Virus record (IMG/VR): IMGVR_UViG_3300013121_000018
Span: 32,001 to 96,000 of that record
Reading direction: 5' to 3' (one strand)
Length of the DNA stretch: 64,000 bases
Origin: a virus
Taxonomy: Duplodnaviria > Caudoviricetes
In this document: one piece after another, positions 3,111 to 59,772 of the stretch
How the letters are laid out: every line of letters starts with the position of its first letter
How positions within the stretch are numbered: position 1 is the stretch's first letter
Program-made: the position numbers and the translations under genes
The notes under the pieces: generated by a model
The model's input: only the letters and a program-made list of their open reading frames with translations
The model's database searches: none
What the model was told of the DNA's origin: nothing

Positions 3111-3117
3111 AGGTTTT

Positions 3118-3930: not shown

Positions 3931-4170
3931 ATGGCAAAAGATAAAGAATTTGAGAAACGATACAAAGAAGAAGGAAACAGAAGAATGTCCATTAGAAAAG
4001 CAAAAAGAAATGAAAAATATTTTAAACTTACAAGAGAAGCCCAAGAATGTGGAAAACCTATTTGGGCAATAAAAGCAGGATATTGGCCTGATTCTAATAG
4101 TCCTACAGGATATTCACAAAAATGTGATTGGCAGGGTAATTGTCAATATCCCTGTAACGGAGATTGTTAA
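3931..4170 (+). CDS. hypothetical protein with Cys-rich C-terminus
   Basis: 79 aa ending CDWQGNCQYPCNGDC. Confidence 0.65.
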   Translation: MAKDKEFEKRYKEEGNRRMSIRKAKRNEKYFKLTREAQECGKPIWAIKAGYWPDSNSPTGYSQKCDWQGNCQYPCNGDC

Positions 4171-27924: not shown

Positions 27925-29520
27925 ATGAGTACAAAAAAAAGTAAAAATAAGTTTGCTGCTCCTACATTAGCTGCTGTAAGTGAACCCAGTGTTGTAACAT
28001 ACACTGGGGATACTTATCCCAAAAGTGCCTGTAGGCGTATTGATAATGACTATTATCTTATCGGTGATAAAAATATCAAAGATTCTGGTCAAGTATTTCT
28101 TATCAATGATGTCTGGTATCGTCTGTCAACTAATAAGATTACATGGGACTATCGTAAAGAAGAATATGTAATTATTAGTAGTAGCACTTTGATTTACGGC
28201 TTGGTGGATGTCACAAAAGACAAAGAACCGGTTATGGGATATTTTACACCAGATGACCTGAAAGATATTATGGTCTATGATTACGGTGCGTCTGAATTTA
28301 TGGCTATGGATGAAAATATGGCATTAAAACTCCCAAATGCGGTACGATGTGTTTCAGATGGTGCTATAGTATTTTCCAAACTTAAAAACGTAAATTCTCT
28401 TAGTAGATTTGAAAAACATGCTAAAAGAAATTATCCCTCGTTTGATTTGAATAATTATGGATTTGCAAATAATCCTGGCGTTTCTCTTGTAAAAGAAAGG
28501 AATGCTAAATATATTAAAAGTAAAGAATTTACAGTAAATCCTACTATTGCAGAAATTGCAAAATTTCTTAAAGGCTATACATTTGGAGCAGAATTTGAAA
28601 CTGCATGTGGTACATTACCAACAAAAGAACTTCTTAAAACAGGATTAATTCCTGTTAAAGATGGTAGTATTTCTGGACATGAGTATGTTACTCTGGTTCA
28701 TCAAGGTGAACTAGGATTACAGCTTTTGATGGATGCAGCAAATGCATTAAGTACATGGACAACTCCAGATCAGTATTGTTCCTTACATATCCATATCGGA
28801 AATGTTCCTAGAACAAAAGAGTTTATCATCGCTATGTATATGTTGTCATACATGTTACAGCATGAATTACATGAAATCGTAGCTCCATACAAAAAAGATG
28901 TCGGTTATCTTGCATCTAAGAATCATGGCGCTAAAGACCACTGTAAATACTTGCAATCACTGAATCTATTTGGAAATCGCATTTATGATGTTCCTAAAGA
29001 ACAAAAACAAAGAGAAATCGATGTTGTCTTCAAAAATGTATTCGCATGGTTGAATGATGGACAGGGAGAAAATGTTAGAAATAATTTCGGAACAGGAGTA
29101 CATGTTAGACAAGACCGTCCTAAATGGGAATGGCAGTCTAGGTATTACTGGATGAATTTTTGCAATTTAGTATTTTCACCACATCATACAGTTGAGAACA
29201 GGTTGCATAGTGGAACAGTGAATCCAACTAAGACGTTGAATTGGTTATTGATTACTGTGGCAATGATAGATTTTGCCATTAATAATCAAGAAGAGATTAT
29301 TCGTGGCAAAACGAAGTATGCACTTGAGGATATTGTAAACAGATACTATAGAGTATCTGATAGTGGCAACATTATTGCCGATTATTTATTGGCATATATT
29401 CGTGACAGGAAAAACAATTTCTTTAATTTGTCTATGATGGGAGATATGTATGGCAATGAATTTGTAAATAAAAATACTTCCTTTGAACCTTGGGAAGTTT
29501 TGATTAAAAGACTCAAGTAA
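27925..29520 (+). CDS. putative amidoligase (Amidoligase_2, glutamine-synthetase-like fold)
   Basis: TFGAEFET, KDGSI, HEYVT, CSLHIHIG, RYYWMNF, TVENRLHSGT. Confidence 0.85.
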   Translation: MSTKKSKNKFAAPTLAAVSEPSVVTYTGDTYPKSACRRIDNDYYLIGDKNIKDSGQVFLINDVWYRLSTNKITWDYRKEEYVIISSSTLIYGLVDVTKDKEPVMGYFTPDDLKDIMVYDYGASEFMAMDENMALKLPNAVRCVSDGAIVFSKLKNVNSLSRFEKHAKRNYPSFDLNNYGFANNPGVSLVKERNAKYIKSKEFTVNPTIAEIAKFLKGYTFGAEFETACGTLPTKELLKTGLIPVKDGSISGHEYVTLVHQGELGLQLLMDAANALSTWTTPDQYCSLHIHIGNVPRTKEFIIAMYMLSYMLQHELHEIVAPYKKDVGYLASKNHGAKDHCKYLQSLNLFGNRIYDVPKEQKQREIDVVFKNVFAWLNDGQGENVRNNFGTGVHVRQDRPKWEWQSRYYWMNFCNLVFSPHHTVENRLHSGTVNPTKTLNWLLITVAMIDFAINNQEEIIRGKTKYALEDIVNRYYRVSDSGNIIADYLLAYIRDRKNNFFNLSMMGDMYGNEFVNKNTSFEPWEVLIKRLK

Positions 29521-31879: not shown

Positions 31880-32126
31880 TGCAGAAGAATTTTTAGAAAA
31901 AGAAAATTTACCAGATTCTTTAAGTGGAGGAACTCTAAAATATGCAATGATTGAATTTGCTAAAATGCATGTAGAAGCAGCATTAGAAGCTGCTGCCGAA
32001 AATGTTGGTATGAAAAAAGAATGTGGTTGTAAAACAGAATCAGAATGCTATGCTGTAATTTGCTGTGATACAGTAATTGATAAGGAATCAATACTAGACG
32101 CTTATCCTGAAAATTTAATACAATGA
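31863..32126 (+). CDS. hypothetical phage protein
   Basis: MIEFAKMHVEAALEAA..IDKESILxAYP, pattern seen in Bacteroidota phages. Confidence 0.7.
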   Translation: MKQIPSAEEFLEKENLPDSLSGGTLKYAMIEFAKMHVEAALEAAAENVGMKKECGCKTESECYAVICCDTVIDKESILDAYPENLIQ

Positions 32127-42872: not shown

Positions 42873-43286
42873 CTAATGTAAGTTTTTAAGCTTATATAAA
42901 GTTGTATATAACAATTCTAGAATATTATCTATTAATTGTTGTAGATAACCTTCAGTCAGTGTTGATCTGAAGGAGTTTACTTTAGGAACACATTGTTCCA
43001 AGTAAGAAGTAAAATCTGAACCTTCTGCAATCATACCGCAGTTGTATCCAGTAATTATTCCATATTGCCCTTGATAAGCCTCTGCAAACGCATCTGCTGC
43101 ATCAACAATTCCATCATACAATTCATTTAGTGCCTTATGTGCAGCAAACGATTGTGTCTGTAAATGTGCAATATGAGCATTGGTTCTTATTTCAAATAGT
43201 AATGAAATAAAACCACCAGCAGAGGATGATGGAGCAGATTGCTTTGTCATCATCCCCTGCAGTTGTGTTTTTGTAAGTAATGCCAT
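42873..43286 (-). CDS. ferritin/Dps-like protein (DUF5856-like)
   Basis: AHIAHLQTQSFAAHKALNELYDGI...D.FAEAYQG. Confidence 0.75.
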   Translation of the reverse strand: MALLTKTQLQGMMTKQSAPSSSAGGFISLLFEIRTNAHIAHLQTQSFAAHKALNELYDGIVDAADAFAEAYQGQYGIITGYNCGMIAEGSDFTSYLEQCVPKVNSFRSTLTEGYLQQLIDNILELLYTTLYKLKNLH

Positions 43287-46200
43287 TATTTACATTTTTT
43301 TTGTAGTGAATCTCTAAAATCTTCAAATGTTGTAGTGGAGGGTGATTTATTCATCCATTTTTCAAAATCTTTATCTGTATATCCACCACCGTCTTCATCA
43401 AATCTTAATTGTCCTGTTTCATCATTATCAGATTTAGTCTTTTTTCCTAATCCTGCTAGAAAACCAGCAGAAGGTGCTGTTTCTACATTTACTGATTGCT
43501 TTTTAGATTCTTCCGCTAATTTATTTAAACCTACAAGAAACTTTATATCATAACCAGGATCTTTTTTAGAAATTTCAACAATCTTTTGAGATACTTTTGG
43601 AATACTCAACATTTGTCCTTTAGCTGGAGTTTCTATAATTAATCCATCTGGAAAAGTAAATTTATAAAATTTATCATTAACTGTTTCAGTATAATCTATT
43701 TTAGGTTTTCCTAATGCATCTAATACAATATTTTTATAAGTTTCTCTTAACTGCTCCGATACATTTGTAGGATTATAATTGTAAACAGAGATTTGTGGCT
43801 TCAATCCACTTAAAAACACATCTGAAACTTCTGTTTTAGTTTGTAAAACTTCGCCTTCAATAAGATTAAGTACTTGATTTACGGCTTGAGCAGTTACACT
43901 TTCTGGAAGAATACCTGTTCTTGTTAACAATCTTTTAATTAGATTGAAGAATCTTTCAAGAATTGATAAATCAAATCCTTCAGCTTTAGTCTGACCTAAT
44001 TCTTTCTGAAATTCCGGTTCTGTCATAATTTGAGTTACAAATTCTTCAACACCAGAAATATCATTGTCATGTGTTAATACACCATAGAATCTTTGTCTGT
44101 TAACTTCAGATAAAGTTTTGTTCTTCTTGAAATCTTCAGCTACCTTAGCAATATTTTCTGCACCATATTTATCTGCTAGAACCTTTCTTGCTTGAGTTTT
44201 AAGCTTTAGAAGATTCTTTTTAATATCTGTATTACCAGGTTCACGAAGTTTCTTTATTGTAAGCTTATGCAAAAACTCATGTAAAATTGCTCTTTCAAAT
44301 TCTTCTGTTGAAGAAAACTTATTACTCAATTCAATTTTATTAGCATTGAAAAAATATCTAGCTTCATTTAACCCTAAAGATTTATTAACTACAATTTCTA
44401 TTTTGTTATCAGCAGCAAATTTATCAAAATATTCAGCTAAATTCTTGAAGTTTTCATTTGCAGATTTTAATGCAATTGATTTTAATATACTACTAATAGA
44501 ATCTCCATTATCGTAATGATATGAAATTATATCAGCTTTTTTATCAGGAACTACTTGTTGAGAAGATTTGACTTTAGATTCTGGTTCGATGTATGTTTGA
44601 TTATACATTTCATTAAGAATCTCAGATAAAGCCCTTGCTTGATTAATTTCTGTATTTGCAAAAGTATCTGTTAAAGTTCTTCCATAGGCTCTTTCAGACA
44701 ATTCCTTCATTAACTCAGGATTTTGGTCAGCCCAAGCTTTCCATAATCCTTTATAATATTTCCAAGAATCTTCTCTAGATATATTGTACTTAGGTGGTTT
44801 TCCTTTTCCTTCACGAATAGTATCATACCCTTTTATACCAACTTGATATAATTCTTCAATAGAACTTTCTTTATTTGTCAATACATGTCCTCTCTGCGTA
44901 AGAATACTTGTTTTAGGTTTTAATTTCGCATTAAAAGCACTAAATCTAGTATCTCCCTTAGAAGATACTTCATAATTTTTATCTGCTCTTCTTGCCCAAG
45001 TATACGTCATATCTTTTTTCTGCAAAGATACAACATTTTCCTTATTTACCGAAACATTATTTACAATACTTTTAACAAAATTCTGACCAAGTTGATATTC
45101 ATTCATTCCAAATACACCAAGAATAGGTATTCTATGATATGTACCATCTTGTAACAATTCAAAAAGTCTCCAACGATTCTTTTTATTAACTGTATTAAGA
45201 TTATCTATGTAATATGAAACATACTTAACTTCACCGTATTTTTCAACAAACGATTGTGTTGCTGTAAAAGATTCTGCTTTAACAATATCCGGCCCTTTAA
45301 TACCTGTCATTTCACTTAACATTTCCATAGGGATTTGTGTAGTCTTTCCAGGGTTATGTTGGAAGTATTGTCTTTCAAAACCTACATACAGTTCTTCATC
45401 ATTCGCCATTATACGCTTGTTAATATCTCTAGAATATTGATTTGTACCAGAAATTTCTAGAACTTCATTAGGAATGAACTTAACAAACTGTGTTGCTTGT
45501 TGAATAGGATCACCAGCATAAGCATACAATGTAAGATACTGCATAAGTTTTCTGGTAGTCATTTCTTCACCATTAAAATCAGGCAACGTTTTATTATCAG
45601 AAAATAAACTAAATGCAGCATCGTAGATAATATTTTCATCAATATCATCTGCAGCAGCATTATTATAGCTTATTCTTGATGGAAGACCTGTATTAACAAC
45701 ATGTGTTTCCAACCTATTGATAAAACTATTATTCATCAAAGGTTTAATATCATTAATATAAGACGCTAAAGATTGATTTTCATCTGTATCAAAGAACAAT
45801 TTCTTTCTTACATCTTCAACTTCTTCTGTTGATAACCCTGAACCACGAACATCTGAGTATATTGCACGTTTAAATTCTGTTAAAACATGTGATTGTAAAT
45901 CAGCAAGCTTTGTAATAGAAGCGTCGTTATCAATCCTAGAATGTTCAAGAATAGAATTAACTACTCCCATAAAACCAGACTGTTGATACGGAAATAAATG
46001 TTTCCACATATTAAATGCAGAACCTAATCCATATGCTAATGCAGAACCAGAAATATGTGAAGGCTTAATTCTAAATTTACCGAAGGCAACAAAATCTTTT
46101 GCCCTTGGAGTATCTTTGATAGCATTCCATTCAGGACTGTTATCTTCTAGTACAACACCAATAAGTTCAGAAACATTAGAAATACTTCCACCATTAATAG

Positions 46201-49200
46201 TTTTACCTGCTTTAACAACAGCTTGAATTACTTCAGGAATAGATTTACCAAAGCCTCTAGAATCAATATTCATGATTTGCTGAACTTTAGCAATTTCTTT
46301 ACCATAGAAATCAGCAACTAAAAATAAATCTAAAGCTCTTCCTTGTAAATTATGAAAGGCATTAACTCTTGCTTCATAAGTAGCATCACTTTCACCTTCT
46401 TCTTTTACAGGAAAATTAAGAGATTGTGTTAATCTTTCAGATGTAATACTTGCAGTTGCATCAAAGAAGTCTTTACCTAAATCGTTCTTAAAACCTAAAT
46501 CCACATTGGAATGTGTATTATACTTGGTTAAAAGTTTATCAATAAGTTTTGCTTCAAAATCAGGATCATACTCGGATAAAGCAGACATCTGTTTCTTCAT
46601 CATCTGAACATAGTCTTTAACTATTGGTTGAGACAATAACATATATCTAATATTATTTCCGTCTTTTCCTTTATCAAAACCTAAAAGTCTTAATGTTCTT
46701 TCAGCAGCAAATGTTAAATCGTTTATATTCAATTTACCAAAGGCTTGAACAGAAGCGTTGTCAACTGCAGCGTTTTGCATTTCAGAGTTTGCAACAGAAA
46801 TATATTCTTTTTTATCCAGAGTTTGTTCTAAACCAAGTTTACCAACAGATTTTACATTGTCGATTTTAAGAGATAATGGCTTGCCTTCTTTGGTCATCAA
46901 TGTAAGTGGTGAACCAGTTGTATTTGCAATTTGTGCAATACTATGAAAGGTTACATCCAAAGATGTTGTACCTACACCAATCTTACCAGAAGCAAGTTGT
47001 ATAAGTTTATCCCTTTGCCATGTATCATTCAATAAGGTTCTATACTTACGTTTAGACGTTTTAGAATCTACAAGTTCTGCTTGTTTCTCAATATGGTCTG
47101 TAGTTAATGGTCGTAGTATCTGCTCCTGAACAACTTTGTTATTGTTAGACATAACACTATGATGAATGTCAATAATATCATTTTTTAATTGTTTAGTTTC
47201 GTCAGAATTATCTACAACTATTTTAGTCGATTCATACAGAGATTCTTTTAATGCTATTACCTCTTTTAATATTCCTGAAAATTCTCTACCTGCAGATTTA
47301 ATAGTTTTTATTCTAGTAAGGACTTCATCAATACTTGAAAACTTATCTTTCAGTAAAACATTGTATTCTTGTAATACTTTTTTAACTTCAGAATAAAATT
47401 CAAAATCATCTGGATATTTACTTCTTAAAGAATTATCACCTTTTATAAAACGTGAACTATTAATGTCAGATAACAATTCTGTCGATGCTGTGAGAATAAA
47501 ACTCTTTACATCTTCTTTAGATGTAAGTTCAGCAATATTTTCTCTGTTCGCTTCATGAAATTTATTTTCCTGAATATTAAAGAAATTATCTGCATATTCT
47601 ACAAGTTCATCCCATTGTTTGGCATCTTCTGAATTAAGATATTGTTTAAGTTCCGGTAATTGCTTTGAAAGCTCTTTTAAAGTTTTCTTAGTTTCTGCAG
47701 TGAATTCTACAGTATGATATTTCATATAAGTGTATAACTTATCAATATCGAACCTTATGTTCCCGATGATTCGTTATGTCATCGGCGGAATTAAATCCAG
47801 CTACACATTTCTGTGCAGAGCAGACTATATCATTACCTTCATCTACTTGATTATCAAGTTCTGGTAAGGTACTCCCCATTTCCATCCACTTGGATGTACT
47901 ATGTTGTTTATCAAAATGAATTTTGTATTTCATACAATCAGGAATATAATCTTTTATAATTTCAATAAATTTCTTCCCCTCCTGCGTTCCGCAACATAAA
48001 GAATAAAATTTACCTTTTTCCATAAAAGTATAAAAGTTAATATCCCAATAATCTTTAAAGTAATTAATAACAATTTCTGCTTCTTCTTTAGTTCTAAAGC
48101 AGGTGGATATTTTAATATAAAACCCTATAATACGTTGCTTATCTTTAGTATATCGCATATTTAGATGTCCATCATCCATATACCATATAGCCAATCCTTG
48201 AGCATCCAATCTTTTAAGAAGTTTTATATTTACAAATCTTTTTTGAGGTATGTATAATATTCTTCTTAAAAGTTTAATAAAAGGTTTTATAGAAAGTTGT
48301 GTATAATACACAGTTGTTCCTACAGCATAACCTTTAGACTGTATATAAGTTTTTATTCCACTGTTTTTAATATGGTATTTGTTTAGTAAATCAACTTTAT
48401 ATTTTAAATAATCTAGTTGATTTTGGCCATGTGCCATTTTAAAAACATAATTGTTGGAGATTGTACCATCTCCTATAGCCATTGCTATTAATAAATTACG
48501 TTGTGATTTATTCATTTTTGAATTAGTTTTCTATTAAAGAAACTTTTTATTATTATTTAGTCGTTACACTTTATTTCATTTTTCAATGAAATCTTAGCTC
48601 GGTATTATCTTCAGCATTATCTGGTCAGACTTTCACCGAATTAAAGGAGTTTTTCATTACTTATTTCTAAGTAAGCGGACAATTACGGGTTATCCGAACC
48701 CATTTGCTTTGTAAAATCTCTAGGAGCAATTACTAAGTCACCAGATTCTTCTGGAAGAAAACCTACAATTTCAATTCCAGACATAGACATTAAGCCTGAT
48801 GTTGGAATACGGAAACCAAATATCTTTAAAAGCGATGGGTCTAATTTATCATTATCTAGGATATATTTTCCATCAACCTTCTTGGCAAATTTCCTCATAT
48901 CAATCAAACGACCATTTTGTTTAAATCTAGATGGAACAAGTACCTGTGCAAAACCACCATTTTGTATAGCAGGTTTTAAGTATCCTTCCCATTTATCTGT
49001 ATAAACAATACTGTCATCTTCCGGTATAGTTTCAGAAACTTTAGTTTTAAATCCTTCTTCACTTCCAAGAACAAATGGAGAACCTGGCATAGCAATTTTA
49101 AGTACTCTATTCCTTACAATTGCAGTAAGCAAATTCTCATATCTATGATGTGATGCAGATAACCACAAAGGAAGTGCAAGTTCACCATCATCTGTGACAG

Positions 49201-52200
49201 ATAATGCTAAAACATCCTTCTTTGGATAATCTCTGGAATCAGCTTCTTCTCTTAAAATATCAACAATCTTTTGTAACAGTTCTTTTTTCTTAGTAATATC
49301 TGTATTATCAGGACTTAATGTTTTTGCAATTTCATCATAAGATTCTTGACCAAGTTCTTCTAAAAGATTTTGAGATTGAATATCAAACAGTTTAGACATT
49401 CTGGTTTCATATTCTCTATAAAGAGCAAAACCTTTTACCTTTTTACCATTCCATTTAAAACCATCTACATTCAATAAGTTTGTAAATATAGTTTTAGATT
49501 CTTGTGTACCTCTGTTTATTTCTTCCTTTTCACCTTTAAAGGGAACTTCTTGTTGTATCTTAAAATTCCTTCTATCAAGAGTTAATGCATGTGCATCTAA
49601 AATATCAACATCATATTCCATGAAGTTACCTTCATTATTCATTACCGGAAGATTTACTTCAGGTGCTCCAACCTTATTAGCACTCTTAAAAGAAGCCCTT
49701 ACGGTTCCACCTACAATACTACCATCTTTGAATAACAACTTGCGAGATTCAAGCTTTTCCATTGCAATGCGTATCTTATCAATCTCCTTTCCTGCTGTTA
49801 AATTTGGATTTAACGCAAAAGATGAAGATTTAATATACATATCACGCATTACAGGGTGATCACCATTCTGAAAATAATCTCCAGTGTATACTGGTTTTCT
49901 AGGTTGTAAAACCCAGTCATCAAATTCTTCAGCAACAGCAGTATCCTTAACAGCTTGTTTTAATTCAGGCATATAATAATGATTTCCTTTCTTTATTTCA
50001 TCTGAAATAGTTTTAGAAATCAAATCATAAAATCCTTTAGAAACCTCACCGTTCTTATAAGCAACATAAAGTTCTTCTAGAACAGTTGTGTATTCTTGAC
50101 CATCTGTACCTTCAATAGCACCATAAACATCAGCATCTCCTGCAAATAGTTCTTTTAATTCAGCTAAAGCTTTAGAAGACATTTTAGTGTCATCTAAAAA
50201 CACTTGAGTAAATGTTTCAGAATCAGAATCTGCTAATTTTGTTCCTGGTGCAATATTTGCTGCTAAACGTTTTGTTATGTTCGTATCTGTACCGAAGTAA
50301 TTCTTTTTCCAGTATTGTGCAGGATCACCTACAAATACTTTAAAGCTTTCTGCATTTGAAATTAAGTAGTTTACTACATAATCTTGAGCAGCAGTTTTAA
50401 TTTTTTCGCCTACAAGTTTTGAAGTGTATTGTGAATCAAGTTTTTCATCGATACCAAGTTCTTTCCAATCTTCAACTTTATCTCTTACAATGAAGTTTAC
50501 AATTGATTTTAATCTTGTAGTCAATGCAGCTTCAACTTCTTCAAATATTTTTGCAGGAGTTTCTTCACCACTTGTATCAAGAAGTTCTGTTACCTTAGTT
50601 CCATTTATTTCAATTTCATTGAATTCAGGGAACATGATAAACTTATTAGCACCATCTTTGTAACCAGCAATATTGATTTGTTTACCAAATTGATTGAATT
50701 GAAAAATTCTATCAACTTCAGGTTTTACCAATAGACTGTAAAGATGTTTCCAACCATCATCATTAATATTACCTTCTTCATCAATATACTTAGAATCGTT
50801 TGTACCAAAATCTTCAGCAATTGTCTGAATAAGAATCATTTGCGATTTATCAGACAATGTAGGAAAGAATGTTTTAATAGTTCTTCCATATTTAGAAACA
50901 CCCTGCTTTGTATCCTGAAACAATGCAACTTTTACAAGTTCATGTTCAGAATCATCAAGACTTTGAATTTTTCTGTCATCTGAGTATTTCTTACCAAGTT
51001 CTTTTAATGCAGACAAAGATAAGTGGTCTATATCAAATACACTACGAAAATGTTTACCAGCTTCAGTATCAGCAGTTAATGCTTTCAGCCAAGAACTTCC
51101 TTTTGAAAATTCAGTTGCTAACAATTGTTGTAAAACAAAGTATTCCGGGTCTTTCTTATTTAAAAGATTTTCAGCATCTTGTTTTAACCAATTCAACCTA
51201 TCCGTAGTTTTTTGTTCTAGGATATAAGTATACAATTGTTTTTCACCTTCTCTAAAAGAATTAGGACGCACTTCTGTACTCGTAGCAGCTTCAATCTTTG
51301 CAAGAGTTTTACTAATTACAGAATCCGTTATAGGTGTATCTTTATTAGTTACATCATCGGTTTCATCATTTATGATATTCTCTGCAGAAGCTCTATTAAG
51401 ACCGTTTGCTATTTGTACAAGAAATGAAGGGCTATTTGCTTGAAGCTTCTTATTATCGCCTAAGTCTTTCCAAGAAACCTTTTGCTTATTATGTCTGTAT
51501 CCGTTCTTTACAAGATTACTCCAAGCCACATCATTAAAAGTAATACCAACGTTTTCCAACCAGGTTCTTACTGTTTGTGGATCAAGTTCTCCCCAAGATT
51601 TAAATTCTTCTATAAGTCCTTGAGCTTTATCTTTATCAAAAAGATATTCACCAGTAGTATTATCAACAGTATACAGACTATTGTACATTTGACGAGTCCA
51701 ATTATTAAATACAGCATCTTTAGCAGACGATGTATTTGTTTTCATTACTCGTAGTACAGTACCTTTTTTACTGTCACTATAGCCAGCATAAACCATTTTT
51801 AAAGCATGTCCAGGCATTCTGGAAACAAACTGTATAATAGTTTTAGGGTCTGCGGTTTTAAGCTTATTTACAACTTCTTGTACCCAAGGTCTATTTTGAA
51901 CTTCAGCTTCAAGTATTTCAGAAATCTTCTTCAAGTCATGAGGAGCATCTACAAGAATATCTTTCAACATGTTGTAAGCACTTTCCCAATGGATGTATTT
52001 ATCTTGACTTAAAAAGTTATACCTCTTAGAACCATCTGTATTTAAATCCAATATACCTGATAAGAACAATCTTAATTCAGTACCAATTCTAATTTTATCA
52101 TCTTTTTCAAAAGAGGCTTTATCCCAAATTTCATCAACAATATCATCGTCGTTTTCATAAGCATCTTTATCATCTCTAAATTTAGAAAGTTTTTCAAACC

Positions 52201-55200
52201 TCTTTTTAGAAATTTTACCAATCTTACTCCAATTTTCAGATACTATTTTTAGATTATTAAGGTGTTGCTCAATTCTGTCAAGTTCATCTGCATATTCAGG
52301 ATCATTTTTTAAATCCTCAAATGTATCAATTTCATCACGAATATCATTATGAATAGAATCTAGTATTTGTAAAGGAGTTCCTTTTCCTGATTCTAAACCT
52401 TGAGCAAATTTATTTATAATAAAATAAACAGTGTCATTGACTTTATCAGCAGTTAATCCTTCAATATAATCTGGATCATTTGCTTCACGTTGAGCAGTCT
52501 GAATTTGTACATCTTCTTCTGGTAATACTTTAGGAGACAACCTTGTACCGTCATTTAAAAAATAACTATACTTAACTTGACCTGCACTAGAATACTTTGA
52601 AGTTTCTCTTGGAGTATATATTTGTTTTGCTAATCTGTCATATTTTATAAACTTTAATTCATTAGCGTTATTTACAGGAATAATCGGAACCTGTAAAAAG
52701 TTTGCCAAGTTTATTAACTTTTGTATATCAAACTTTTTCTTAGACGATGTATTTAAATAAATAGCTTTTATAGAACCTGGATAAGCTGTAATAAAAACCT
52801 CTTCATACTTTGCATTAAGGTTTTGCTCATATTTATCATCTATAACTCTATTTTTAAATTTACCTACTATTCGATTTTTTTCAGAATCTAAAGTTGAACC
52901 GACATCTTGGTTAAATGCAACATCTATTCTATGCTGTTCATGGAAAGATAACCAAAATGTTCCATCTAACATATTTTTACTTCTGCCAGTAAAAGCAGCT
53001 AATTGTAAAGTATTTCCTCTTTTAAAGAGTTCTATAAAATTATCAATAGCTTTATCAACAGTAGAAATGTTAGCATTATTCATGTAAGCACCTACACCAT
53101 GAAATACTCCATCAAAATCTTTAACACTAAAAGATTTTGCTTTTGTAAAAACATCTTTTCTTTTATAATTTGTATTTACAATTCCACCATAAACCAAAAT
53201 ATTAGCAACATCCTGTAAAGTTAAAGATTTTGGTAATTTTAAATAATCTAATGCAAGTTGATTGTGATAAACAAGTTTTTCTTTAAAAGAGTTATTTTCT
53301 TTTATTAAAACCGTTTCTATCAAACCTAGCATCTTTTTTATAAATCTTATTAAAGAATTTATAAAACTAGGAGTAGCCGTATTTAATTTTCCAGAAGAAT
53401 ATCTAGCTATAGTTTCAACAATAGCTTCTTCCATCTGTTCTTCCGCAGAAAGATTTTTATATTTTTCTTTTACATCTTTTAATATTTCACGTCCTTCTTT
53501 TGTACCATTTATTTGAGATTTTAAATCTGAATACGCAGATGAATTATTGTTTTTTAATGTTTCTATTAAAGGATGTGCAAATTCATGGAAGACTGATGTA
53601 GAATTTAAATATCTCTTATTTAAATATACAACACCATTTTCAAACTTACCTGACCATTTTCCGCTATCAAATACAAATTCAACATGAATAGAAAATCTAT
53701 CACTTAACCCTTTTGCTAGTTTTTCAATATTCCAAGTATCTGTTTGATTTTCTAAAAACAAAGACAGTCTCGTATCAGCCTGTTTAAGACGATTTAAGGC
53801 AGCCTTTTTCTTAGTGACATCTTGTACCTTAGTTTCTGTTTTAAATGTTTCTACAGGCTTAAGCTCATCTTTAAATATTACCTTACTGCCATCACTGGGA
53901 TTTTCTAAACTTTTTACAATAGAAATATTAGCTTCGCTTCCAGATAACAAACCAAAATTACCCTGATCATCTATAATATTCGCAACAGGAGATAAGGTAT
54001 CTGTAGTACCATCTATAAAAGTTACAATAGTAAATTGATTTTTTCTAAACTTTTTAAATTTACTAATTGCTTCTTTTAAATCAGTAGGAGCAGCCCCCTT
54101 ATTTACCTCCAGACTGCTCTCTGAAACTGATACATCTTTCATAGAAATATTGATATAAGGCTGAACAGTATAAGCATACTTTCCATTTCCTACATCAATA
54201 CCTTCAATATTAGTATGAACTAATTCTTTTACAAAGTCTTTATATTTCCAAGTATCATCGCCAAGTTTAATATCCTTATTGGATTCCATATGCTTTGCAG
54301 AAGTTGCTGTATAAGATTCAGCAAGAACTTCATTCAATATACCTAAGATAAGTTTTTTAGCATCTTCACCAACTTGCATATCATTTGATAAACGAATATA
54401 GTTTACTTTACTTGCAACAGGTTTTCCATCTGTTCTGGATATAATTAAAGCACCTTCTTTTGGAATAATATTATACTGATAACTAACTTTAGTGTACTTG
54501 TTTTTATTTCCACCATCGCCTCTCCAATTAATAAATTGACGAATATGGTCTGTCAATACATTTATATTTCTATCCTTTTCAGGAAGAGAAATAAATCTTT
54601 CTACAGTACGAGTAATATTATCAACAATTCTTTGTCCAACGGGAGTTTCACTTAATTTCTTATGCCATACTGGTACAGCTACATGTTCGTTACCACGTAC
54701 TTGAAGAATAGAATATGTTTGACCAATGTGATTCTCAGAAGCTATTTTAGGTGCATTTATTACTTTTCCATCTTTAAACAATGGATGTAATTCATTACCA
54801 TCAAATAGTCTACCTTCAGAACCTACATAAGCAATTGATGCTGTTGGTTGATACTTTGCAACACTTGCTTGTGGCTTCTTACCACGAGAAGTATTAAATT
54901 GACCATAACCTTTAAACTCAATAGTAGTTTCAACTTTACCGGTTTCAAATACTTGTTGTCTAAAGTTATTAAGAATATCAAGTTGTTCCTGTGCTTCAGC
55001 AGGACTGATAGGAACTTCTCTACTCCAAGTTTTATTGGAATTAGTATACTTTACTTTATCAGATACTTCATAATGACTTTCATTAGTCAATCCACCAATG
55101 AGAACATCACCATCAACAGTTCTAACTTCCATATACTTAGTTTGATATGGACGTTTTTCATCATCGATTCTAGAAGCTTCATCTGGATGTGGTGCAAGTT

Positions 55201-57724
55201 GTACATAAATTTTTGTTCCAGGTAAAAGATTATCTGGATTGATATTATATGTATAATCTACTTTATCAGTACCATCAGTAATTTCATCTGCAGTCCTTGT
55301 ATAAGGAATATTTAAGAACATCAACCTTGATGCATCCTGAAACGGATTCTTAGAAGAATCATCATCTGCAGATTGTTCTGTAATAGACTTCTCTGTAAAT
55401 TCATCAGTTGCATCTGGATTAATTACTTTTGCAATTTCAGCTTGCTTTGCAGCAGCTTCTTGCATTTGTTGTTCTACAGGGATAGGTTCCCCAAAAACAT
55501 CATCGAGATTCGTTACTTCTCCGGATTCTTTTGCCTGTTTCTTTAGACCGGCCATGAAATCACTTTCATCAAATCCAAACAATTCATTAACAGCTACAGG
55601 TTTTTCAATTTCCTGTTCTGCAACTTCAGCTTTACTTTGTACTTGAGTTTGCTTTACAGCTTGTTGTGCATTCTGCTTTACAGGCTGTGTAACTTCTTCA
55701 GGAAGGTCTGCTTCTTGAATAGCATTTTCAATTTCTTCTTTGTACTTAGAATCTTTCTTAGGATTCTTATTTTCAATTTCATTGACCTTTTCGGCAAACT
55801 CTGTTTGTTTAGAAAGCTTTTGTTGAAATTCATCAGATGTGATTTCATCATACTCATTCTTTAAGTCTTCAATACTTTGTGCTAAAGAATCTGTTTTATC
55901 TTTGATGTCTTTAGCATCACGATATTCTTTTGTATTTCTTAAATAATTTGCTGTCTTGTTATAAGTAGCCGCAGCTTTTCCTTCATTTGGATTATTTCCA
56001 GAAAGAATATCTTCTGCATTATAAGAAAGAATCTTTTCTCTAGTAAGAGTATTATTTGTACCAGCTTCTTGAATAGTTTCTGATGCACCTGACCTAGTTG
56101 TATACTTTCCTGCTTTTATACCAGATTCAATTCTACTAGACAACTTAGAAGTTGCACCATTTAATTTATCTTGGTATTCGTTTAAAAGCTTTTCTTGTAA
56201 AAGAATATTTGCCGCAGTAGTATAAACTTGAGAAGAATTTTGATAATTACTTGCTTCAATAAATTGACTTTCAAGTTCTTTAATTGTACTTACAGCTTCT
56301 GCTGCTTTCTGCTTTGCAAATTGCGGATCAAGACCTTGAGCTTCATATTGTTCATCTGTAAAGCTTCCAAGCTTCTGATAAACATCTAATAGGTTTTCGG
56401 TTGTACCAGATTCAAATGCTCTTTGTGCTTGGTATATTAACAGATTATCTGTGGCCTTTTGAAAAGCTTCTTTATTACCAGTAGCAGCTACAGCATTAAC
56501 ATTTGCTAAAAGATTTTGTTGTTCTTCTGCAGATGTAAATGCATCAGTCAATCCTTTAAAACCAGAAACATTTGCAATTGTATTTTGTTGTGCAATTACT
56601 TTCTGTTGTTCATCGTACCTTTGATTATTCAGGAAATTTGATGAAACAAGTTTTCCTTCATCTGTACGATGTGCAGGAATGCTTTTTGAAAAATGTGTCA
56701 ATGCTGTTTGACCAGCACCACCAACAAAACCAAGCAATGCATTTTCAGCACCTTGTTTTGTAAGTACATCTGACAAAGCTTCAGACCATCCATACTTTTT
56801 ACCAGCAGCTTCAGCCCTTGCTTTATTTTCAGCAATCATGTTTACAGTCTCCTCACCCATTTCTTGAAAACCTTCCTTACCCATTTCACCAAGGGCACGT
56901 TTACCCGTAGATTTTGTAAGAAGTTGTCTTGTAAGAGTTGGAGGACGAACAAATGCTTTAGCACTTGTAATATTCAATAGAATATTAATTCTATTCAAAT
57001 CTATAGATGTAGATGCTGCAGTTGCAGCAGCCATCTTAGCAGCTTCTGGAGAAAGTCCTTCTTGCAACTTTTCATTATAAACATCGTTATAAACATTTGT
57101 TGCAATACCAATAGATTCTGCTTGATTAAGTGCTGCAGAGTTTGCCAACCATTTTGCACCTTCAACTGCTTTAGTAGTATTGTTAAGTGAATTAAGCCAT
57201 TTAACACTATTTGCAGCCTTTCCAAGCATACCTATTCCAGCACCAGTCAAATAACCAGTAGCAACAAATGATGTTGCTGATTCAACTAAGGAAGAACCAT
57301 TATCCCACCACCAAGCAGGATCACCTATGTCTAAAGGTTTTCCTGGTTCCGCCCTATAAATTGGAGCAGATTCTTTGATGTCAGTCTTAATAGACTCCAT
57401 AGCATTTGTCAACCAGTTTCCTACTTCATCATCTTGATTCATGTAATCCTCAAAATCAAGAGCACTGGCAACATTTCCTATAATACTAAACGGAATTTGA
57501 AACAATCTTTTTGAAGCTTGGATACCCATATCCAATCCTGTCTGATTAGAGTTGCGTATCTTTTGCTGCAAATCAGCGGCAGACCGTCCCAGTCCTGTAT
57601 CATAGGTGTTGACTTCTTCTCCACCCGGAGGCGTATAAAACCTATTACTTTGCATCAGGTAATCAGAAGGCACTACTGCTTGTTCTTTACCTTCAATAAG
57701 ATCTATTATTCTCGATTTAGCCAT
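43286..57724 (-). CDS. giant virion RNA polymerase polyprotein, two exons (57724-48692, 47752-43286; ~4,499 aa spliced)
   Basis: Splicing restores FRIPT...QMGSD|FDIDKLY, the two-barrel RNAP catalytic DFDID; start MAKSRII coupled to the upstream TAA; HEFAH and HEFLH zincin motifs. Confidence 0.9.
47742..48515 (-). CDS. intron-encoded LAGLIDADG homing endonuclease
   Basis: LIAMAIGDGTI and LAIWYMDDG motifs, CMKYKI; ORF reads through the intron 3' core into exon 2. Confidence 0.9.
   Translation of the reverse strand: MNKSQRNLLIAMAIGDGTISNNYVFKMAHGQNQLDYLKYKVDLLNKYHIKNSGIKTYIQSKGYAVGTTVYYTQLSIKPFIKLLRRILYIPQKRFVNIKLLKRLDAQGLAIWYMDDGHLNMRYTKDKQRIIGFYIKISTCFRTKEEAEIVINYFKDYWDINFYTFMEKGKFYSLCCGTQEGKKFIEIIKDYIPDCMKYKIHFDKQHSTSKWMEMGSTLPELDNQVDEGNDIVCSAQKCVAGFNSADDITNHREHKVRY
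47753..48691 (-). mobile_element. group I intron in the RNAP catalytic motif
   Basis: P1 cggat/gtccg; P aattcggtgaa, Q aataccgagc, R gtgtaacgacta, S gatatagtctg; terminal G. Confidence 0.92.
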
Positions 57725-59772
57725 TATTTTATTTTTGTATTTCTTGTTACGTTGTCTACATCTTGTGCAGTCCAAACACGTTTAGTGCCGTCTGGATTGT
57801 AAAGAACATTACCATCATCATCCAATATATTAACAGGTTGATTTGTTAATGGATTAATAAGAGCAACATCTTTCATTACAAATGAATTCTCGTAAGGATT
57901 CTTATTTAAATTACTCCACTGTTCCCAAGCAGCCAAAGCATCTTTTTGAGAAGCTTGTCCTTTTGTTACAGCATCTTGTATTTTCCTATAATTTTCGTAT
58001 GCTAGGTCTTTTGCATAAACATCTTTAGAAACTACCTTAATACCAGCAGGAAACTGTTCTCTTAAAACAGGATTGACTGGTTGAAATGTAACATCAGGTG
58101 TAGCATCATTAAGTTTTGCTTGATTGATTCTATATGAATCACTATTCAAAGTTTCTTCTTGTAAGCTTTTAGGGCCAACCACAAAAGTCCAAGCTTTTCC
58201 GTTTTCATCAACATAAGATGCTTTTTGTCCAGAAGGCATTACACCATTAGGTACATCCATTTCTTCTGTAATAGAACCATTTTCAATAAGACGTTTAAGT
58301 TTTCCTTCGTTAAAAGTACCATCAGTATTTACTATTCCCATTTGTTTACCTAATTCTATACCAGTCATTGTTCCAACTTCTCCAGGCATTATAGTTGTAA
58401 CTGTCATATCATTTGTAAACATTGAACCTGCTGTAGCACCTTCTTTACCTTTAGTTACACCGAACAATGCTGAAGTCCACATATCTCTTTCTTTTTCATC
58501 ATACAGTTTTACAATAGCATCTGTATTAGAAAGAGCCTGTCTTTTTTCATTATATTTTTGTTGCATGAAAGCGTATGCTTGTTCATTTGACATTTTAGAT
58601 AAATTAGATGCAAATTCATCTGCAATACCTTTAATTTGTGGAGGAGCATTTTCCAACCAAGTTTTAAATGGAACATTTGTATATTCCCTTACTTTTTTAG
58701 GAGTTCCTATAAATTCATTTCCACCAACAGTTCTTGCATCAGAATAGTCTACTCTTTCTACATAAGGTCTTCCTTGTTCATCTAAACCAGAAGCTATATC
58801 GCTCCACTCAGGCATACCAGAATTTGAATTAAATATCTGTGTTCTTAGATAAACATCATTCATTGTAAGTTTATCTTTTTCTTCCTTAGTACGAAGTCTT
58901 GATTTAAGTTCCTCCATTTCGGCCTCATGAGTTACCTGATTATAGTCATAACTAGATTTAGAATATGCTTTACCAGTAGCTGCTGCATCAAGCATTTTAT
59001 TTATTCCAGCAATGGCATCTGTACCAGTAGCTTCTCCATAAACAACAGCACTTGTTAGCATTTCAGGGGAAATTTGACCAACTAAAGCATCAAGAACTTT
59101 TTTCTTGTCAATATGTTCTACTTTACCTGTTCTAAAAAAACTTTTTAATGATACACCAGAAGGAATAAGACCAGGTTGAATTGAAAATTGGTCTGCTTCA
59201 ATATTATCAAGAATAGTATCAATATGCTTAGTCCACTTTTCAGGACTGAAGTATTGATACATATTAGGTTGATTTACTGAACCATAACCGGTATCTGTCT
59301 TATATGGTTGAATATCAATATTTTTCTTATAGTATTTATACAACTCTGGTGCATACTGATCTGATTTAGGATCGAGATATGTTTCTTGTAATCGTTTATC
59401 AATTTCAGTATACTTCTGCAACCGCTGTTGAAACATATCTGCTGCACCACCAGGTTGAAAATCCATTTTTCTTTTAGCAGTTACTTCACGTAAGAGTTGA
59501 TTACCTTTAGTAATATCTCCAGAAGCAAAAGCATCTGTTACATTTTTAATATCAGCCTGAACTGTTTTATTATAAGTTTCAACATCAGGTCTGTCTTGTT
59601 CCATGTGTTTAGGAATCAAAGCACTTAAAGCAGGAATTGTATCATAAGTTTCTTGTTGCTTATCAAGTGTCTTCAACCATTCATCATACTTTGGCTCCCA
59701 AATTTGTATATTCGGATTAACCCATGAATAATCTTTATTCACAGGTTTCATAAATCTATTTATTGCTGCCAT
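57724..59772 (-). CDS. internal virion / cargo protein
   Basis: 682 aa in the structural arm directly upstream of the RNAP. Confidence 0.65.
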   Translation of the reverse strand: MAAINRFMKPVNKDYSWVNPNIQIWEPKYDEWLKTLDKQQETYDTIPALSALIPKHMEQDRPDVETYNKTVQADIKNVTDAFASGDITKGNQLLREVTAKRKMDFQPGGAADMFQQRLQKYTEIDKRLQETYLDPKSDQYAPELYKYYKKNIDIQPYKTDTGYGSVNQPNMYQYFSPEKWTKHIDTILDNIEADQFSIQPGLIPSGVSLKSFFRTGKVEHIDKKKVLDALVGQISPEMLTSAVVYGEATGTDAIAGINKMLDAAATGKAYSKSSYDYNQVTHEAEMEELKSRLRTKEEKDKLTMNDVYLRTQIFNSNSGMPEWSDIASGLDEQGRPYVERVDYSDARTVGGNEFIGTPKKVREYTNVPFKTWLENAPPQIKGIADEFASNLSKMSNEQAYAFMQQKYNEKRQALSNTDAIVKLYDEKERDMWTSALFGVTKGKEGATAGSMFTNDMTVTTIMPGEVGTMTGIELGKQMGIVNTDGTFNEGKLKRLIENGSITEEMDVPNGVMPSGQKASYVDENGKAWTFVVGPKSLQEETLNSDSYRINQAKLNDATPDVTFQPVNPVLREQFPAGIKVVSKDVYAKDLAYENYRKIQDAVTKGQASQKDALAAWEQWSNLNKNPYENSFVMKDVALINPLTNQPVNILDDDGNVLYNPDGTKRVWTAQDVDNVTRNTKIK

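Follow-up and report, generated by a model that had tools for sequence, protein, structure and literature searches.

A 64,000-nucleotide (nt) stretch of phage DNA, referred to here as the window (positions 32,001 to 96,000 of the IMG/VR record IMGVR_UViG_3300013121_000018, Caudoviricetes), codes for a giant protein homologous to the virion RNA polymerases of crAss-like phages, within which 44605..45010 on the minus strand specifies a minimal NADAR domain that belongs to the DarT1-associated, or Asp, type. With moderate confidence, we favor a reading in which this domain is catalytically intact and is carried as cargo by the polymerase, so that it would be injected together with the genome and would cancel a DarT1-like defense before phage genes are expressed. 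An initial annotation of the sequence had claimed a NADAR-like stretch at this position; the minus-strand translation is indeed open there over 135 amino acids (aa), and all the motifs that it quoted are present, including YEVSSKGDTRFSAFN, SIEELYQVGIKGY, TLTDTF, and INQARAL.

Boundaries, fold, and active site of the domain

The domain corresponds to residues 906-1040 of a 1479-aa open reading frame (ORF) at 43286..47725 (minus strand), that is, to residues about 3943-4077 of the 4516-aa protein obtained by splicing (see below). It matches end to end the PHROG family phrog_9995 (E value of 1.7e-33), a family of 124 positions made up of stand-alone phage proteins of unannotated function. The free-standing homologues, of 116-147 aa, share 39-48% identity with it across 88-99% of the query, and the ends of the domain coincide with the ends of these proteins. 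In an alignment of 16 sequences the invariant columns (SSKGD, S-A, IE..YQ, K, D.F, and QA) have the look of an enzyme, and on sequence grounds we consider 44605-45010 to be a discrete domain and not a chance set of motifs. With a GC content of ~0.29-0.32 in both the domain and its flanks, base composition gives no sign of a recent acquisition.

An AlphaFold2 model built from the 16-sequence alignment was highly confident (predicted local distance difference test [pLDDT] of 94.3, predicted template modeling score [pTM] of 0.89). When this model was compared all-against-all with 48,161 representatives of the PDB, the top match was the DarT1-associated NADAR of Geobacter lovleyi (8bat; Z 8.9, root mean square deviation of 2.9 Å, 112 residues, 24% identity), followed by the NADAR of P. 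nicotianae (8bau, Z 6.9) and by YbiA of E. coli (2b3w, Z 6.8), and the best chain outside the NADARs reached only Z 3.8. With Foldseek, 8bat alone came near significance (E value of 1.4e-3, probability of 1.00), while in BFVD strong matches were found solely to the domain's own family, the annotated viral NADARs giving weak ones (E values of 0.1-1.5). The initial annotation had named a fold other than NADAR as grounds for its refutation. Since the confident model matches NADAR structures only, and the DarT1-associated one best, the fold does not refute the NADAR reading, and the domain is predicted to have the NADAR alpha+beta fold.

The link to the DarT1-associated NADARs, for which Pfam has a separate model (PF22397, "DarT1-associated NADAR antitoxin"), was drawn through intermediate sequences. 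One family member (P0016) matches PF22397 with an E value of 4.5e-4, and bacterial relatives retrieved with the pattern [CVM]SSKGDxRFS do so with E values of 4e-6 to 2e-5, a Paenibacillus relative reaching 33.8 bits, which exceeds the Pfam cut-off. Four genuine PF22397 proteins (243-307 bits), three of them adjoined by a DarT gene, were used as references. Their motifs (LEISSKS, LSAFNL, VESVFQSSK, AFTDIEF, and INCQA) match those given in the initial annotation for DarT1-associated NADARs (EISSK, LSAFN, VExxFQ, FTD, and CQA), and the set given there is therefore correct. The family profile scored 55-95 bits against the intermediates, and a profile of the four DarT1-associated NADARs scored up to 36.7 bits against the same sequences. 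In a profile-profile comparison with hhalign, the family matched the DarT1-associated NADARs with a P value of 0.0077 over 106 columns; with the intermediates added, the probability was 92% and the P value 6.8e-7 over 107 columns, as opposed to a P value of 0.52 for the control with reversed references. Sequence-only searches against solved structures, made with the query alone, a 16-sequence profile, a 46-sequence profile, and P0016, retrieved no NADAR, and nothing was matched by the PADLOC defense models.

The profile comparison and the map of catalytic residues described below place the domain in the Asp-type, DarT1-associated branch, the type first assigned to it. The alignment begins at position 55 of the references, the ~50-residue N-terminal extension of DarG1 not being present. 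A search of the 107.6-kb phage genome for DarT (PF14487) gave no match at E≤10, so the domain is an orphan and not the antitoxin of a toxin-antitoxin pair. In being minimal, it resembles the majority of the phage NADARs that Johannesman et al. described (PMC11825919).

In DarG1 of E. coli C7, residues E88, K95, and D171 are required for the de-ADP-ribosylation of guanine, and the neutralization of DarT1 depends on K115, a lysine shared by the DarT1-associated NADARs (Schuller et al., PMC11543638). At the last-strand position, Asp distinguishes the BC4488/DarT1 branch, whereas YbiA has Glu and the T4-type phage NADARs have His (PMC11543638, PMC11125620). Both hhalign runs aligned E52, K60, K69, and D115 of the domain with E88, K95, K115, and D171 of DarG1, respectively. 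The corresponding codons, all on the minus strand, are found at 44855..44857 (E52, aligned with the residue that contacts the distal ribose; PMC11543638), 44831..44833 (K60, phosphate contact), 44804..44806 (K69, the lysine specific to DarT1-associated NADARs), and 44666..44668 (D115, the catalytic Asp of the last strand). E52, Q56, and K60 align with the ExxxQxxK motif (E43/K50 in P. nicotianae, E88/K95 in E. coli C7), K69 with a Lys invariant in all four reference proteins, and D115 with the invariant Asp of the TD-x-(E)F motif.

These four residues, together with Q56 and Q124, are unchanged in all 46 NADAR modules that form part of proteins with at least 1000 aa (46/46), and the six are invariant or nearly so among the stand-alone copies (K69 is invariant in alignments A1 and A2), as is typical of enzymes under selection. 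It has been reported that one phage NADAR needs no enzymatic activity (PMC11825919), and the domain is much reduced in comparison with DarG1, so it could be thought of as a non-catalytic structural spacer or as a binding module that, for example, sequesters an ADP-ribosyltransferase (ART) or binds ADP-ribose. However, the conservation of the six key residues in both the embedded and the stand-alone sets speaks against such a role, which we regard as very improbable. A YbiA-like role in the riboflavin pathway was also considered and dropped, since the domain is of the Asp type, not of the Glu type of YbiA, and lies within a virion polymerase.

The virion polymerase gene and its modules

Both the 1479-aa ORF and a 3030-aa ORF (48683..57775) match PHROG 16227, a virion structural protein of 4401 positions, and both show colinearity with gp32 of Flavobacterium phage FpV4, a 4287-aa protein annotated as "virion structural protein." They appear to be two exons of a single gene. 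Exon 1 (48692..57775, minus strand) codes for 3028 aa ending in GSD. Its residues 2214-3028 match residues 562-1361 of gp66 of Cellulophaga phage phi14:2 (E value of 6.5e-24), a protein whose annotation as the catalytic polymerase subunit of crAss-like virions is based on tandem mass spectrometry, and its residues 72-232 match gp45 of crAssphage, an "RNAP associated protein fused to zincin protease." Exon 2 (43286..47752, minus strand) codes for 1488 aa that start with FDIDK, complete the polymerase module, and continue with the NADAR, a zincin module, and a tail. Its frame is open from 47773, with FDIDK upstream of the called ATG, and residues 175-500 of the called ORF (P0002) match residues 1471-1758 of gp66 (E value of 0.002).

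Between the exons lies a group I intron of 939 nt (47753..48691, minus strand), which splits the catalytic motif DFDID (GSD/FDIDK) and carries an ORF for a LAGLIDADG homing endonuclease (47742..48515, minus strand; PF03161, E value of 4.5e-20). Two sub-threshold matches to the Rfam model Intron_gpI (34.2 and 24.7 bits) flank this ORF, which crosses the 3' intron core, its last 11 nt belonging to exon 2. The final nucleotide is U in exon 1 and G in the intron. Excising 48691..47753 restores in frame the sequence GSDFDIDK, identical to that found in gp66 at position 1361 (the equivalent in FpV4 gp32 is DYDIDK at 3116), and the spliced product would have 3028 + 1488 = 4516 aa. Homology to the proteomics-annotated gp66 and the DFDID motif restored by splicing identify this product as a crAss-like virion RNA polymerase, as had been claimed for the host protein of the domain, and the same homology places the NADAR C-terminal to the polymerase core. 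Considering the virion annotations of its homologues gp66 and gp32, the polyprotein is probably packaged in the virion and ejected with the genome. Two database proteins, P0034 (1537 aa) and P0068 (1084 aa), begin at the equivalent of the exon 2 start, and the polymerase gene may be split at the same catalytic site in other phages.

The NADAR is located between the polymerase module and a zincin-bearing module. The part that precedes it is gp66-like and the module that follows it is shared with FpV4 gp32 and with phi14:2 gp65, an RNAP-associated protein; thus, the domain sits at what in phi14:2 is the boundary between the genes of gp66 and gp65. The zincin motif HEFLH (HExxH; 44267..44281, minus strand), at residue 1149 and ~110 residues after the NADAR, aligns with HEIMH of gp65 (E value of 2e-4) and HEVIH of gp32 (E value of 5e-10). 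At the position of the NADAR, gp32 has 83 aa versus 243 aa in the 4516-aa protein, and none of the Flavobacterium phages matches the domain. The presence or absence of the domain in related polymerases had been proposed as a check, and it gave an FpV4 orthologue without NADAR and a module that recurs in other crAss-like polymerases. The NADAR is an insertion, in our reading a cargo module of the polymerase. Scans of IMG/VR for closer relatives of the exon 2 protein yielded no confirmed loci; for near relatives, the pattern of presence and absence is therefore that of the Flavobacterium phages only.

In addition to the polymerase module and the NADAR, the polyprotein contains two HExxH motifs. 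The second one (HEFAH, residue 1397) is found in an insert of exon 1, residues 1333-1747 (window positions 52535-53779, minus strand), and is followed by ~250 residues. These last residues (~1490-1747) are suspected to be an ART, and the NADAR might then be its eraser on the same polyprotein, like the YarT-YbiA pair, the ART modifying host or phage nucleic acid and the NADAR limiting or reversing this modification on phage DNA. Weak language-model leads point in this direction, as ART families account for three of the four closest named clusters (scores of 0.76-0.78); fusions of ARTs to N4-like RNAPs are known (PMC5512222), and ART-NADAR toxin-antitoxin pairs exist (PMC11125620). However, neither the Pfam model for the ARTs of polyvalent proteins (ART-PolyVal) nor that for DarT has a match in the phage genome at E≤10, and no homologues of similar length were found for residues ~1490-1747, whose single-sequence AlphaFold2 model (pLDDT of 40) was unusable for searches. 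Moreover, many phages have the NADAR module as a protein of its own, and the polymerases that carry it differ in their make-up. A writer and an eraser on the same protein seem to us quite unlikely.

Immediately adjoining the polymerase gene at its 3' end, a 137-aa ORF (window positions 42873-43286, minus strand) matches DUF5856 (E value of 5e-21) and PHROG 858, "starvation-inducible transcriptional regulator."

The module in other phages and in bacteria

A search of 1.8 billion proteins with the family profile recovered 1012 cluster representatives at 50% clustering, and 4534 short proteins score E≤1 with it. Nearly a third of the best representatives (47/150) are 1000 aa or longer, and about half of these 47 giant proteins have similarity to crAss-type polymerases or a D[FY]D[IVL]D motif. 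The position of the NADAR in the crAss-type giants varies, being N-terminal to the catalytic motif, just before it, or far after it. In addition, the 3506-aa protein P0065, with a NADAR at residues 625-745, is an N4-like virion RNA polymerase, as recognized by three Pfam domains of these enzymes. A contig assigned by binning to Candidatus Saccharibacteria codes for a 1488-aa protein (L004:92-4555) that shares with our polymerase the NADAR alone, at 55% identity; this identity, far above the similarity of the scaffolds, suggests that domains are shuffled between giant proteins. In 15 of the 47 giants (P0028, P0033, P0037, P0046, P0058, P0081, and others) we also observed an HExxH motif within about 300 residues of the NADAR, on either side, as is the case in the 4516-aa polymerase, and NADAR and HExxH may travel as a cassette.

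It is possible, although we put it forward tentatively, that injected polymerases of two classes with no evolutionary relationship, the crAss-type two-barrel and the N4-type single-subunit enzymes, have repeatedly captured a minimal NADAR cassette, and not always at the same position. If this is true, ADP-ribosylation of incoming DNA would be an immediate-early barrier, and a pre-packaged eraser tethered to the template would clean the DNA in cis during the first transcripts.

Fusion to an RNA polymerase in two unrelated classes might also be taken to mean that the tethered domain acts on RNA, either de-ADP-ribosylating transcripts or processing NAD-capped or ADP-ribose-linked 5' ends of early RNA. 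A defense system that ADP-ribosylates RNA has been described (mentioned in PMC11825919), and ScARP modifies both DNA and RNA, its cytidine modification being reversed by certain NADARs (PMC12945103). However, the widely varying position of the module within the polymerase and its frequent occurrence as a stand-alone protein point to cargo rather than to a coupling with catalysis, and we think it improbable that RNA is the substrate.

Stand-alone copies are found in phiKZ-like jumbo phages (PHIKZ082.1) and, near the genome start, in N4-like phages of Achromobacter and Delftia; in Delftia phage RG-2014, the stand-alone copy, gp18, is located upstream of the RNAP subunit genes. We count these placements near the genome start as anti-defense context. 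In the uncultured gut crAss-like phage cr118_1 (NC_055872.1), a match at 28990-29442 (E value of 9e-5) lies ~3 kb downstream of the polymerase motif. This match falls in ORFs annotated as "DNA helicase" and "exonuclease V," labels that look doubtful.

Short members of the family are also fused to other domains of the ADP-ribose network, including Macro, YAcAr-SLOG, and DUF4326. Iyer et al. (PMC9503650), who predicted that NADARs are packaged in virions, assigned such partners to low-molecular-weight derivatives of ADP-ribose (ADPr). Accordingly, an active NADAR could instead process a soluble immune signal or toxic by-product derived from ADP-ribose (cADPR-type, ADPr-1''P), quenching NAD-derived signaling early in the infection. 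Yet the active-site set is that of the DarT1 antitoxins, including the equivalent of K115, every non-YbiA NADAR tested hydrolyzes guanine-ADPr on DNA (PMC11825919, PMC11125620), and the bacterial copies adjoin ArdC-like genes, which protect DNA on entry. A soluble substrate is, in our opinion, unlikely.

The distant bacterial members adjoin ArdC-like anti-restriction genes and PcfJ, or a primase. In three Clostridia loci (L013:2130-4414, L014:3112-4405, and L018:1483-4408), an ArdC-like gene, coding for an ssDNA-binding (single-stranded DNA) N-domain and a metallopeptidase, is closely followed by a distant NADAR-DarT1-like gene, and a PcfJ-like gene is also found upstream in L013 and L014. These loci look like an anti-defense cluster of conjugative elements, an echo of the adjacency of NADAR and zincin in the phage giants. 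From the viewpoint of sequence, the recurrence in two unrelated classes of virion polymerases and the adjacency to ArdC-like genes strengthen the reading of the domain as an injected eraser, which would act on DNA.

A possible role at genome entry

By homology, the polyprotein would be packed in the capsid, ejected with the genome, and employed in the transcription of the early genes; if so, the NADAR would be present from the first moment of the infection. It would cleave ADP-ribose from guanine, and possibly from other bases too, in phage DNA that is entering the cell or being transcribed, and a defense based on a DarT1-like ART would be canceled ahead of any phage gene expression. The zincin might free the NADAR domain from the polyprotein. 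While the analysis shows the fold, the homology, the conservation of the active-site residues, the position in a homologue of virion polymerases, and the recurrence of the fusion, we infer the enzyme activity, its substrate, and the packaging and ejection of the protein. A precedent for the chemistry is provided by the stand-alone phage NADARs (AdfN), which neutralize DarTG1 (PMC11825919).

Several considerations weigh against this reading. The Pfam NADAR model PF08719 did not match the protein (E≤1), the members of its family (E≤10), or a six-frame translation of the genome (E≤10), and PF22397 had no match to the query or to the phage genome at E≤10; the miss of PF08719 tests the reach of the model, and homology is not thereby excluded. 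The placement of the domain among the NADARs relies on structure, intermediates, and profile-profile comparison. True DarG1 proteins have an N-terminal extension of ~50 residues and a segment in mid-domain that are missing here, so the specificity of the domain may differ from that of DarG1. AdfN of T4 requires the phage context for full activity (PMC11825919), so the function of a NADAR can depend on its context, and Iyer et al. read the Macro, SLOG, and DUF4326 fusions as a sign of processing of soluble ADPr derivatives (PMC9503650). Finally, we infer not only the packaging and ejection of the protein but also the activity of its subfamily and DarT1 as the target in the host of the phage.

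Compared with DarG1 (E. coli C7; G. lovleyi, PDB 8BAT; PF22397), the domain has the same series of motifs, EhSSK, (L/F)SAFN, (I/V)ExxhQ..K, TD.F, and NxQA, and the same Asp in the last strand, with equivalents of E88, K95, K115, and D171, and the DarG1-type structure is its best structural match (Z 8.9). However, DarG1 has ~230 aa versus ~135 aa here, where the N-terminal extension is absent and the middle is shorter, and it is a free antitoxin, whereas our query, below the Pfam threshold, is embedded in a 4516-aa virion protein for which no DarT partner was found. With AdfN (T4 gp30.3, Bas32, and Bas60; PMC11825919) the domain shares being phage-borne, having no toxin partner or DarG1 N-terminal extension, and the expected job, removing from phage DNA the ADP-ribose added by DarT1. 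AdfN, however, is a stand-alone protein made after infection, while the domain described here would arrive pre-made on an injected protein. In addition, the T4 clade has His where our domain has Asp (D115), a difference that follows from the rule for His in PMC11543638 and PMC11825919 and not from a direct alignment to gp30.3.

Regarding the scaffold, the polyvalent proteins of Iyer et al. (2017, PMC5512222) are likewise giant, virion-associated, multi-domain proteins with zincin-like HExxH modules and enzymatic cargo that are predicted to be injected, but here the scaffold is a crAss-type two-barrel polymerase. The polymerase of the crAss-like phage phi14:2 (gp66 with gp65 and gp67) has a catalytic module with DFDID and a gp65-like zincin module as well. 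In contrast to phi14:2, the modules are fused here in one gene (as in FpV4 gp32), which is split by the intron and has an extra NADAR at the gp66/gp65 junction.

The NADAR fold, the chemistry of DarG1, orphan phage NADARs acting against DarT1, polyvalent injected proteins, and fusions of ARTs to virion RNA polymerases were already known, as was the prediction from gene neighborhoods that phage NADARs are packaged. The 2017 paper on polyvalent proteins described fusions of ADP-ribosylation enzymes to N4-like RNAPs and mentions neither NADAR nor YbiA (PMC5512222). A survey of 2022 described phage NADARs as "typically standalone" and does not mention crAss (PMC9503650), the paper on the anti-DarT activity of phiKZ reported the macrodomain AdfM alone, and NADAR is not mentioned in the top-ranked searchable literature on crAss or virion RNA polymerases. 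What is new relative to the literature searched is a minimal, Asp-type NADAR clade that is missed by the standard models and that recurs as an insertion in virion polymerases of two unrelated kinds.

With these results, PHROG 9995, with more than 1000 clusters at 50% identity that include phiKZ 082.1 and genes near the genome start of N4-like phages, gains a predicted function, and NADAR is added to the known cargo of giant injected proteins. The finding is also relevant to the crAss-like phages of the human gut, since cr118_1 has the same module downstream of its polymerase motif, and the cultured N4-like and phiKZ-like phages offer easy test systems. DarT can block both the transcription and the replication of an entering genome, and the known countermeasures against DarTG (AdfA, AdfB, AdfN, and AdfM) must first be expressed by the phage. 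A capsid-borne de-ADP-ribosylase attached to the polymerase that makes the first transcripts would solve this problem of timing.

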